Shown here: in pieces, positions 50,401-53,400 of the stretch
Layout: every line of letters begins with the position of its first letter
Position numbering within the stretch: position 1 is the first letter of the stretch
Assembly (NCBI RefSeq): GCF_001677475.2
Contig: NZ_CP015229.1
Direction: 5' to 3' (one strand)
Length of the DNA: 64,000 nt
DNA from: Escherichia coli
Lineage (GTDB): Bacteria; Pseudomonadota; Gammaproteobacteria; Enterobacterales; Enterobacteriaceae
Made by a program: the position numbers

Positions 50401-53400
50401 TTCATGTTGGGCTTCTTCGCTGATCTCTTCATTGTTCATCAAACGGGTGAGCAGTAACTGGAAGTAGTGGGCCAGCGGTGTGCGTTCAGCGTCTGCGACA
50501 GGCTCTGCGCATTCGGTCGCGTACTCATCGGCAATATCAAAATATTTTAGCGGGATATCGTGGTTCATTATTTGCCCCTGGGGTTAATGCGCTAAGCATA
50601 AGGGCGGATGATAGCACTCGTGATCCGGGTCATACATCTTTTTATAGTTAATGGCGCGGTGCATTACCCTCAGGCAGGATAATGCGCCGCGCATCCGACT
50701 ATTACGTTTCGCTCACCGGTGTTCTGTCACCATCATACAACGGCACTTTGCGATAGCGGCGGATCAGATACCACAAATATGCGCCGCCTAACGAAGCCCA
50801 TACCAGACCGAGTGTCAGTGACGTTGACTCGAGGTTAACCCACAGCACACCCACCGTCAGCGCGCCAACTAGCGGCATCAGCAAATAGTGGAAGTGATCC
50901 TTCCAGCTTTTATTCATTCCTTTGCGCCGCCAGAAGTGGTTGAACACCGACAGGTTAACGAAGGTAAACGCTACCAACGCGCCGAAGTTAATTAACGCTG
51001 TGGCGGTAACTAAATCGAAGAACAGCGCCGACATCGCGACAATTCCGACCATAATGACGTTCAGTGCCGGAGTCCGCCATTTTGGGTGCACATAGCCAAA
51101 CACGCGCTCCGGAAACACATTGTCACGCCCCATCACATACAGCAGACGCGACACGCTGGCATGTGAAGCCAGGCCAGACGCTAACGTGTTCACAAACGTG
51201 GTGCAGAGGAATATCGACTGGAAGAGCTTGCCGCCGACGTACAGCGCAATTTCAGGCAGTGCGGCGTCCGGGTCTTTAAAACGGCTGATATCGGGAAAGA
51301 ACAGTTGCATAAAGAACGACGCAGCGATAAAGATAACGCCGCCGTATACCGCCGTCAGGAAGATAGCTTTCGGGATCACGCGTGCGGCGTCCGGCGTCTC
51401 TTCCGAAAGCGTGGTCACCGCATCGAAACCGAGGAACGAGAAACAGACAATCGTCGCCCCGGTAATAATCGGGATCAGGTGCGCGTTCTCGCTGATAAAC
51501 GGCTGAAGTGACCAGACGGTGCCAACGCCTTCTCCTTTATGCAGTCCCTGAACCACCAGGAAGATAAACACCACCATGATGGAGATTTGCACCAGTACAA
51601 ACAGGGTATTGAAGTTAGCAACCAGATTGACGCTCTTCAGATTCGCGGCGGTTAAAATGGCGACGAAGGTCACCACCCACACCCACGGCGGCACTTCCGG
51701 GAAGAGGGCGGAGAGATAGATTTTCGCCAACAAAACGTTGATCATCGGCAAAAAGAGATAATCCAGCAGCGATGACCAGCCGACCATAAAGCCGACGTGC
51801 GGGTTAATCGACTTTTGCGCGTAGGTATAGGCCGAACCGGCCTCCGGAAACTGGCGAACCAGTTTGCCGTAGCTGATAGCGGTAAACAGCACACCCGCCA
51901 GCGCCAGCAAATAGGACGCCGGAACGTGACCGTCGCTAATGCCAGATACAATACCAAAAGTATCAAATACGGTCATCGGCGTGAGATAGGCCAGACCCAT
52001 CATCACCACCTGCCACAATTTCAGTGATTTTCGCAGACGGGTTTTGCCGGGTTGCGCAGCAATATTCAGTGGTGAATTAATAGCCATAATTGCTGCCTCC
52101 CCTGCGTAATAAGGTTTGCGGTCGTGTCGACCTGAAATCAAACCTGTTTAGCAAGGGAAGCAAAGGGGGCGGAGTCCAGTCAGTCGCAGGAGGGGCGCAT
52201 ACGCAGCCTCCCTCGCCATGCGGGGATTTAATCATCGGCATCATCTCATTTCCTCGTCACAGTCTTAATCGTTAACGGAAGCCCGTTGCCGCCTGCGCTC
52301 CATAACGCGACATCCGGGAAATGTCTGGATTACCAGCAAATGTCAGGCCTGGCTCCGCTCAGGCCGATGAAACAACCCCGCAAGGGGTATTACGCGTTTT
52401 TCAACATCCACTCAATTTCTGTTTCTGTGATGAGGCGCTCAAACTGCAACAGCTCATCATTTTTACAGGCGTGATACACATGACAGAAACGTTCGCCTAA
52501 ATAGTGGCGCAGGTGATCATTCTCGATAAACTCACCCAGGGCATCGCTCTGGCGAATCGGGAAGGGTAAGCCTTCCTGTTCCAGGCCGTTGCCTTCGACT
52601 TCTTCCTGTAACGGCAGCTCGTTATCAAGGCCATGCAAAATACCGGCAAAAATCGCTGCCATCACCAGATATGGGTTGGCATCGGCACCCGCCACGCGAT
52701 ATTCCACGCGGTGGTTATGACGGTCGCCGCACGGAATACGCAGGGCGACGGTACGGTTGTTATGGCCCCACGACGCCTGCGTCGGTACATACATACCTGG
52801 CTGGAAGCGGCGATACGAGTTCACGTTTGGTGCCAGCAACGCCATTGATGACGGCATCAGGTCAATCATCCCGGCGAGCATCTTTTTCAGCAGCGGCGAA
52901 TCTTCGCCTTCCGCGTCAGAAAGCACGTTCTCGCCACGATTATTTTGCATACTGATATGGATATGCATCCCGCTGCCCGCGTGCTCTTCATACGGCTTCG
53001 CCATAAAAGTGGCGTGCATCTTATGCTTTTCTGCCATCAGACGCACCAGGCGTTTTAGTGCCAGCGCATCATCGCAGGCTTCCAGCACGTTATCGGTATG
53101 GTAAAGGTTGATTTCAAACTGACCCGGCGAGGCCTCAGCGACCGCGCCATCTGCCGGAATCAGCTGTAACTGCGCCAGTTCATCAATATCATTGAGCACG
53201 TCGGCGAAGTGGTTGAGGTTATCAACGGAGTAAACCTGGCTTTGTGTATTGCGGTCATCGGTGCCGGGCGCGCAGGGCGGTTGCAGATACCCTTCAGCGT
53301 CGCGTTGGCGATCCAGTAAATAGAACTCCAGCTCTACCGCTACGACCGGGAACAATCCGCGCTGGCGCAGCTGCTGCCACAGGCGGTTAAGAACGTTCCG

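Follow-up and report, generated by a model that had tools for sequence, protein, structure and literature searches.

The puuA-puuP spacer and the ymjE reading frame

The element considered here is the spacer between puuA and puuP, which lies within a 64,000-nucleotide stretch of an Escherichia coli genome (RefSeq assembly GCF_001677475.2, contig NZ_CP015229.1) that is referred to below as the window. Both genes are on the minus strand, with the ATG of puuP at 52087, and the gap between them is 302 nucleotides (nt), at 52088-52389 (-). PuuP is the main putrescine importer and feeds the Puu catabolic pathway, its known control is transcriptional and involves PuuR, ArcA/FNR and sigma-S. An initial annotation of the window had picked out the spacer as unusually long (about 300 bp) and GC-rich, with several short inverted repeats that included a CCCC-GCAA-GGGG hairpin at the puuA stop. 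This description was accurate, as the length and coordinates are correct, the GC content is 0.56 compared with 0.509 for the whole window and 0.53 for puuA and puuP, the hairpin is present two bases past the stop codon and four more inverted repeats are found in addition to it. The spacer between puuA and puuD, which is a genuine promoter spacer, has a GC content of 0.327.

The same annotation had called the region intergenic, which is not wholly the case, as it overlooked a translated small open reading frame (ORF), ymjE, that occupies over half of the spacer and runs 11 nt into puuP. RefSeq annotates ymjE in spacers identical to this one, at a place that corresponds to 52077-52241 (-), with a start at 52241 and a product of 54 amino acids, and the ORF of the window matches residues 1-54 of the Pfam family PF23692 (YmjE) with 147.6 bits against a cutoff of 27. 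This is a family of proteins of unknown function that is essentially restricted to Escherichia, the threshold is reached only by the Escherichia sequence whilst the positional orthologues of other genera fall below it, and a protein family of this kind also misses the RNA described below. No match to YmjE was found in NCBIfam. YmjE has been detected on immunoblots as a chromosomally tagged protein (PMC6001520) and is low in abundance (bioRxiv 10.1101/511675), with no function reported for it in the literature that was found. The features of the spacer are collected in Table 1, where ymjE is listed as an upstream open reading frame (uORF) and Shine-Dalgarno is the full form of the abbreviation SD that is used elsewhere.

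Table 1. Features of the puuA-puuP spacer in window coordinates, in the order in which they occur from puuA to puuP
Feature	Coordinates	Strand	Remarks
puuA stop codon	52392-52390	-	TAA; the other Escherichia loci that were compared have TAG
GC-rich hairpin, ACCCCUUGCGGGGU then UGUUUCAUCG (coding strand)	52388-52375	-	Two bases after the puuA stop
Conserved non-coding 5' leader domain (about 150 nt)	52228-52377	-	Covariance model R1, 146 bits, sole match in the 64-kb window
P0, 5' strand GUUUCAU	52367-52373	-	GCAUCAU in most genera; pairs with AUGAUGC 52238-52244 (ymjE start codons)
P1 hairpin, CGGCCUG-AGCGGAGC-CAGGCCUG	52344-52366	-	Compensatory changes in the stem; loop GGA nearly invariant
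Sigma-54-like -24/-12 match, AGGCCTGACATTTGCT	52350-52335	-	In the 3' strand of P1 and the 5' strand of P2
P2 hairpin, GCUGG-UAAU-CCAG	52324-52337	-	One pair changes from U-A to A-U in about half of the sequences
Predicted anti-Shine-Dalgarno, CAUUU (extends into CC)	52319-52323	-	Pairs with AAAUG 52247-52251
P3, CCCG..GUCGC (loop GUUAUGGAGCGCAG) GCGGC..CGGG	52282-52318	-	Loop A-N-GGA-N-C at least 95% conserved
ymjE Shine-Dalgarno, GAGGA	52251-52255	-	ACGAGG at least 95% conserved in 43 sequences
ymjE, putative relay uORF	52077-52244	-	In-frame AUGs at 52244 (the first), 52241 and 52235; UAA 52079-52077, 11 nt inside puuP
Published AtoC chromatin immunoprecipitation site, GCCATGCGGGGATTTAATCA (PMC3118216)	52217-52236	+	Reverse complement of ymjE codons 3-9 (from the RefSeq start, 52241)
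3' domain	52097-52159	-	UUCCC 52159-52155 (in ymjE) pairs with GGGAG 52101-52097 of the puuP SD
puuP Shine-Dalgarno, GGGGAGG	52096-52102	-	
Overlap of ymjE and puuP, AUGGCUAUUAA	52077-52087	-	puuP start codon and ymjE stop

A scan for PuuP that took one genome per species returned 80 loci, and about 60 loci from Enterobacterales were compared. The gap from puuA to puuP is 266-426 nt in Enterobacteriaceae and 302-326 nt in some Serratia, whilst other Serratia, together with Pantoea and Erwinia, have one of 108-171 nt. Every one of the 52 long-spacer loci that were scored has an ORF of 54-72 codons starting a few bases past a conserved ACGAGG, and wherever the start of puuP could be fixed this ORF ends at a TAA that is 11 nt into puuP (ATG-GCN-NNT-AAY). 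Codon 3 of puuP keeps a T at its wobble position, with AAY after it, in all loci that carry the uORF, and one extra long-spacer locus outside the 52 (L059) has, by eye, the same overlap. The uORF frame has no stop codons across the 52 sequences whilst the two others have 179 and 140, and the chance of such open frames is approximately 9e-13 when taken as the product over 12 lineages in which the central parts cannot be aligned.

The peptide itself is, from the substitutions in it, weakly constrained. The ratio of non-synonymous to synonymous change (pN/pS) in the uORF is 0.36-0.52, compared with 0.02-0.18 in the flanking genes (measured on 60 codons at the start of puuP and 60 at the end of puuA), and synonymous change in the uORF is suppressed at the positions of the RNA helices. 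It has to be considered that YmjE is mainly a functional small protein, such as a partner of PuuP or PuuA, with the RNA structures being incidental to an overlapping gene pair. That a tagged protein is detected and that a Pfam family exists would fit with this, as would the N-terminal 9-12 residues, which are conserved with synonymous third-position changes and have a pN of 0 with a pS of 0.225 in the group of Cedecea, Buttiauxella and Enterobacter. Set against these are the overall pN/pS, the middle of the peptide that cannot be aligned between genera, its total length that varies from 54 to 72 codons, the C-terminal residues (G-G..H-G-D) that are set by the SD, AUG and first codons of puuP where the two genes overlap, the failure of the Pfam model outside Escherichia and the low abundance of the protein. 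Furthermore some Serratia, Pantoea and Erwinia do not have the ORF yet have a structured leader. A protein function as the main role of ymjE is unlikely.

Stalling of the ribosome on a polyproline stretch, whether relieved by EF-P or of the eukaryote-like PPW kind, was considered and rejected, as the PPP of YmjE varies within E. coli and is absent from other genera. Two frameshift-and-return variants of YmjE (P0008 and P0009) come from single assemblies, may be sequencing errors and were not used. Within the uORF a motif R-S/I-K/E/D-Y-G/D-G-P recurs in Citrobacter, Trabulsiella, the Enterobacter/Cedecea group, Franconibacter and Serratia (loci L016, L018, L024, L048-L058, L055 and L069), a motif that is missing from the Escherichia uORF, which is shorter by about 10 codons. 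A mini-ORF of three codons also overlaps the first start codons of ymjE, AUG-AGA-UGA at 52241-52249 (-), which has the form AUG-A(G/A)A-UGA in many genera and is a bare start-stop, AUG-UGA, in Citrobacter.

Structured RNA upstream of and within ymjE

Positions 20-184 of the E. coli spacer, which are upstream of ymjE and across its start, are kept at approximately 80% identity across genera. Over shorter distances the spacer diverges less than the coding sequences either side of it, with none of its 302 nt differing from E. coli FDAARGOS_943 (L001) compared with 40 mismatches in puuA and 53 in puuP, a difference of about 3-4% that is nearly all at third codon positions (window 50702-53808). The spacer also diverges less in comparison with E. 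whittamii, a cryptic-clade Escherichia and a divergent E. coli. The spacer is matched in 4373 of 5426 complete E. coli genomes, in 4230 of them at an identity of at least 99% and in many at 100%. Despite this the closest of the complete E. coli genomes reaches no more than 98.7% identity over a piece of 902 nt, and approximately 1050 of the 5426 genomes do not have any match to the segment formed by the 3' end of puuA, the spacer and the 5' end of puuP, therefore the puuA-puuP junction is missing or replaced in about 19%. Six of the matches are on plasmids.

When the E. coli spacer is folded as a single sequence the result is modest (z = -2.58, with 2 of 100 shuffles equally good) and most of the signal is in the final 109 nt (z = -3.74, with none of 200 shuffles as good). 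The structure is judged to be real because the comparison across species supplies the strong evidence. Alignments of the 5' domain were made with 40 sequences (A2) and 43 sequences (A3), the helices were taken from RNAalifold and the covariance model R1 was built from A3. The domain has stop codons in all six frames across the orthologues. In A3 91.8% of the paired cells can pair, compared with 35-49% when the partners are slid by 1-3 columns, and 16 of 47 pairs have compensatory changes on both sides, a number reached by none of 500 shuffles. Many of the pairs are G-U pairs that would turn into A-C on the opposite strand, thus the structure belongs to the RNA in the sense of puuP. That the spacer was structured and likely to be regulatory for puuP had already been suggested by the initial annotation, and the covariation across the orthologous regions supports the fold.

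Four elements named P0 to P3, with an anti-SD between P2 and P3, make up the 5' domain. P0 has the consensus G(C/U)(A/U)UCAU across genera and pairs with the AUGAUGC that contains the start codons of ymjE, whilst the AAAUG that is the partner of the anti-SD is directly 3' of the ymjE SD and overlaps it, hence the helices of the 5' domain are predicted to bury both the SD and the start codons of ymjE. The loop of P1 reads GAGCGGAGCC in the alignments. Of the unpaired columns 16 in 67 are at least 95% conserved, and all 16 are in the P1 loop (U..GG.A), the P3 loop (A.GGA.C) or the SD (ACGAGG), the GGA of the P3 loop and the GGA of the SD being 48 nt apart. Searches of Rfam 15 gave no match to the spacer of E. 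coli (E <= 10) or to those of six other genera (E <= 1). Two further pairings were proposed from inspection of the sequences, one of GCAUC with GGAUGU as an alternative and one as a pseudoknot that joins GGAGC loops to GCUUC, and were set aside as they are not conserved or do not covary.

A second set of helices is found in the 3' domain, where an alignment of 41 sequences (A4) has a C-rich segment of the uORF pairing with the puuP SD and an inner helix, AGGUUUG:CAAACCU, which in E. coli is formed by GGUUUG at 52144-52139 and CAAACC at 52118-52113. In A4 95.6% of the cells are paired and there are compensatory changes in 7 of 14 pairs, which was matched by 5 of 500 shuffles. The uORF contains a stretch that is rich in C (0.36-0.41) and poor in G (0.18-0.21).

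The distribution of the leader follows puuP and not puuA. In Shimwellia a hydrolase gene precedes puuP in place of puuA, a copy of the R1 leader is kept along with a uORF of 63 codons, and therefore the element is attached to puuP rather than to puuA. In the Serratia, Pantoea and Erwinia that lack the uORF a structured domain lies immediately ahead of the SD and AUG of puuP, and weak matches to R1 are found directly before puuP in Pantoea and Erwinia (E of about 3e-4 and 5e-4). The leaders of Serratia are not matched by R1, they have their own 5' domain followed by a module in which UUUCUUC is paired with a GAGGAAA SD and encloses a hairpin with CAGGA in its loop, and this is so whether the next AUG begins a uORF or puuP itself. 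The 5' domain of the Serratia-type leader is treated here as distinct from that of R1 but related to it, with the CAUUUC/GAGGAAA module in common.

A number of individual loci are unusual. In Hafnia paralvei (L041) about 2 kb has been inserted between puuA and the leader, with the leader and a 72-codon uORF still adjoining puuP. The PuuP homologues of Bacillus, Neobacillus and Fictibacillus (L063-L075 and L081) are, unexpectedly, about 70% identical to that of E. coli, these loci do not have puuA upstream and have no match to the leader model. A record titled Chryseobacterium sp. 18061 (L036) has a typical Enterobacteriaceae arrangement of puuA, leader, uORF and puuP, with PuuA 90% and PuuP 88% identical to E. 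coli, and this contig is probably mislabelled or contaminated.

A proposed translational relay and its possible signals

The arrangement of these elements leads us to regard the spacer, with moderate confidence, as a cis-acting 5' leader of puuP on a puuA-puuP transcript that acts as a two-step translational relay. In the first step the 5' domain (P0-P3) would hold the ribosome-binding site of ymjE in base pairs, thus initiation on ymjE would be gated by whatever opens or stabilises the fold. In the second step the puuP SD would be locked in the long helix with the C-rich segment inside ymjE, and a ribosome that translates ymjE would melt this helix and terminate at the UAA that is 11 nt inside puuP. 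Initiation or re-initiation could then occur at the puuP AUG, which is 8 nt upstream of the ymjE stop. As the ribosome on ymjE would both melt the second helix and stop 8 nt past the puuP AUG, translation of the two genes would be coupled. If ymjE is left untranslated its C-rich, G-poor stretch may also be exposed to Rho. We infer from this layout that ymjE and puuP are coupled, that Rho may take part and that a signal acts on the 5' domain, and it is probable that the leader controls the amount of the putrescine importer that is made. Of the roles that had been suggested for the spacer (a puuP promoter, an attenuator or a small RNA) an attenuator-like leader was the nearest guess.

There are several points that do not sit easily with such a relay. 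The 5' 150 nt of the E. coli spacer, taken alone, fold no better than shuffles (z = -1.29), and little covariation can be seen in P0 and the anti-SD helix, as both vary too little for it. Parts of the N-terminus of YmjE (M-F/I-K-Y/S-P-H/Q-G-E-G) are conserved in amino acid sequence in most genera with changes at third positions, therefore the peptide may have a role of its own. A literature search found no experiment that links the translation of ymjE to the output of PuuP. The tables of PMC7815308 do not contain 3' ends or Rho-dependent sites in the spacer, and PMC5694010 has no CsrA peak from crosslinking and immunoprecipitation with sequencing (CLIP-seq) for puuA, puuP or ymjE, with very little expression of the puu genes in the conditions of either data set.

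For the signal, the binding of CsrA to the three conserved GGA motifs and a folding that depends on polyamines or cations are the foremost candidates. The sites of CsrA follow known rules, with A-N-GGA presented in loops and two sites that are 10-63 nt apart, and the GGA motifs in the two loops and at the SD fit these rules as predicted sites. A CsrA dimer would bind GGA motifs in the P1 and P3 loops and the one that overlaps the ymjE SD, and so block ymjE, and hence puuP, during fast growth. The restriction of all 16 of the best-conserved unpaired columns to the two loops and the SD is in keeping with this, as are the 48 nt between the P3-loop and SD motifs and the hairpin with a CAGGA or GGGAU loop that is found just 5' of the SD in Serratia, Hafnia and Franconibacter. 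The CsrA-repressed leaders of glgC and cstA also have GGA in hairpin loops with one overlapping the SD. The leader of puuP is like these in the layout of its GGA motifs and in preceding a gene of the stationary-phase or scavenging type, and differs in that the candidate target would be a relay uORF and not the structural gene. On the other hand binding of CsrA alone would not need a conserved fold of several helices, the GGAG motifs could be SD-like standby sites for the ribosome, and besides the missing CLIP-seq entry puuP is absent from a table of CsrA-regulated transporters (PMC5694010). In favour of CsrA is the ribosome-profiling table of the same study, where the row for puuA has a positive value (0.84) and the flag 'RPF and CDS.RNA', an entry that is quoted here without its column headings and amounts to no more than a modest rise in puuA ribosome footprints (PMC5694010). 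Control by CsrA is put forward as a tentative possibility, and is on the whole rather doubtful.

It is less likely still that the P0-P3 domain, of about 130 nt, is an undescribed sensor RNA. Such a sensor would act in the manner of a riboswitch or of the mgtA leader, with putrescine, a polyamine, a related cation or a metabolite such as an intermediate of the pathway shifting the fold, and would gate ymjE and puuP through the relay uORF. One riboswitch-like trait is present, as the covarying domain of several helices is consistently upstream of one gene family, the same transporter gene, with an expression platform that varies between a direct SD and a relay uORF. That no Rfam family matches would also suit a new sensor, and polyamines are reported to remodel the 5' untranslated region (UTR) of oppA and to work via the uORFs mdtU and speFL (PMC7815308). 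However the distribution is narrow, being limited to Enterobacterales, the Serratia-type domain is outside model R1, and the best-conserved unpaired bases are simple GGA motifs and not an elaborate junction.

Leaders of this general kind have been described in other transport operons of enterobacteria, and among the closest to the proposed relay is that of the E. coli spermidine exporter, mdtU-mdtJI. This polyamine transporter also has a long leader with a translated uORF, the RNA of which is predicted to pair, through its 3' part, with the downstream ribosome-binding site, and translation of mdtU is required for the expression of mdtJI (PMC7815308). The two differ in that 106 nt separate the stop of mdtU from mdtJ, where ymjE and puuP have an overlap of 11 nt, and in that a further conserved 5' domain, predicted to bury the start of the uORF, is present in the puuP leader. 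A mapped Rho-dependent 3' end and a response to spermidine that has been shown are further features of the mdtU system. In the ornithine-sensing speFL-speF-potE operon, which also belongs to a polyamine pathway, the state of translation of a leader ORF again sets the expression of the genes downstream (PMC7815308). There it is a conserved arrest peptide together with Rho that is involved, whereas the C-terminus of YmjE is dictated by the signals of puuP and its middle is not conserved, therefore an arrest motif of the SpeFL type is unsupported and a C-terminal arrest peptide of this type was rejected.

The mgtA leader, which contains mgtL, senses both magnesium and proline and combines a structured RNA that responds to the cation with a short ORF and Rho-dependent polarity. 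Both it and the puuP leader precede transporter genes of enterobacteria, with no relationship between them in sequence or in Rfam, and other genera have not kept the run of prolines that is seen in E. coli YmjE (PPP).

No account of a puuP leader, or of a riboswitch or uORF mechanism for this gene, came up in full-text searches. Whilst the kind of mechanism is established, and both ymjE and the listed promoter were known, this member of the class and its RNA motif appear to be undescribed. A leader with a relay uORF that extends across Enterobacterales would add a layer of post-transcriptional control to a gene for which control at transcription is known, would provide YmjE, an orphan small protein, with a definite role, and would supply an uncatalogued RNA motif with an input that is directly testable. 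Should the domain prove to be a sensor, no RNA element before it would have been shown to sense putrescine, and E. coli would have, besides speFL and mdtU, a third uORF circuit linked to polyamines.

Promoter and small-RNA alternatives and the end of puuA

If the spacer is not a leader in the sense set out above it could carry an internal promoter for puuP, either the sigma-54 promoter puuPp or one for sigma-S, downstream of a terminator for puuA. puuP has been listed among sigma-54 promoters and cloned as puuPp (PMC3118216, PMC7045595), and the sequence AGGCCTGACATTTGCT, which is probably what the databases list under this name, has the correct GG-N10-GC spacing of an element like TGGCAC-N5-TTGCW, with 3 mismatches. 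A terminator-like hairpin does follow puuA, and Shimwellia must drive puuP without puuA. However matches of this quality are not enriched, with 107 in the window against 128 expected, the spacing between GG and GC varies by 0-2 nt between genera and Citrobacter does not have the GG. In published work puuPp is described as mismatched in both the -12 and the -24 elements, and it was among the promoters tested when argTp gave 17-56 times more green fluorescent protein than all others except glnAp2. No sigma-70-like site was found in the E. coli spacer or in the leader region of Shimwellia, and no consistent pair of -35 and -10 elements was found 5' of P0 in 40 loci.

A conserved sigma-54 promoter was thus rejected, as the match is at the level of chance, its spacing is not conserved and its bases are within the covarying stems P1 and P2. 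The sigma-54 promoter of the databases is more simply explained as a part of the RNA structure, and an internal promoter of any of these kinds, which could be one specific to E. coli, is improbable. The site published for AtoC at puuP is the complement of ymjE codons, therefore it is inside the small ORF and not in a promoter.

The remaining suggestion, that the conserved block forms a small RNA of its own, for instance one derived from the 3' UTR of puuA, is unlikely, to the point of being barely credible. The sequence directly 3' of puuA is indeed highly conserved and structured. However, the only terminator-like hairpin is at the 5' end of the block with none at its 3' end, the block leads directly into a conserved SD and AUG, it has no match in Rfam, and it accompanies puuP where puuA is absent. 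The Term-seq tables of PMC7815308 also contain no 3' end for it, in conditions where expression was low.

The hairpin after puuA, which on the plus strand is the CCCC GCAA GGGG at 52376-52387, would as an intrinsic terminator have a stem of 5 bp and UGUUUCAUCG as its tail. One terminator-like site of this sort was seen where 0.7 would be expected by chance. Klebsiella, Raoultella and Lelliottia also have a hairpin at this position, other GC-rich hairpins take its place elsewhere, and in the related genera the U tract is often absent. It is possibly a weak terminator or a structure that stabilises the 3' end of puuA.

Two observations were made elsewhere in the window. Between ymjA and sapA, at 50222-50310, there are two overlapping weak matches to the Rfam family naRNA4, one on each strand, with 25 and 21 bits that are below the gathering score, and the site looks like a palindromic element of the REP (repetitive extragenic palindromic) type, REP111 being listed with the puuA/puuP operon (PMC10100675). 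Near-perfect matches to the sigma-54 consensus, with 1 mismatch each, are found at 60778-60793 (+), TGGCACGCAAATTGTA, and at 46120-46135 (+), TGGCACGCCGTTTGCG, the first of which is, from the expected order of the genes, likely to be the psp promoter region.

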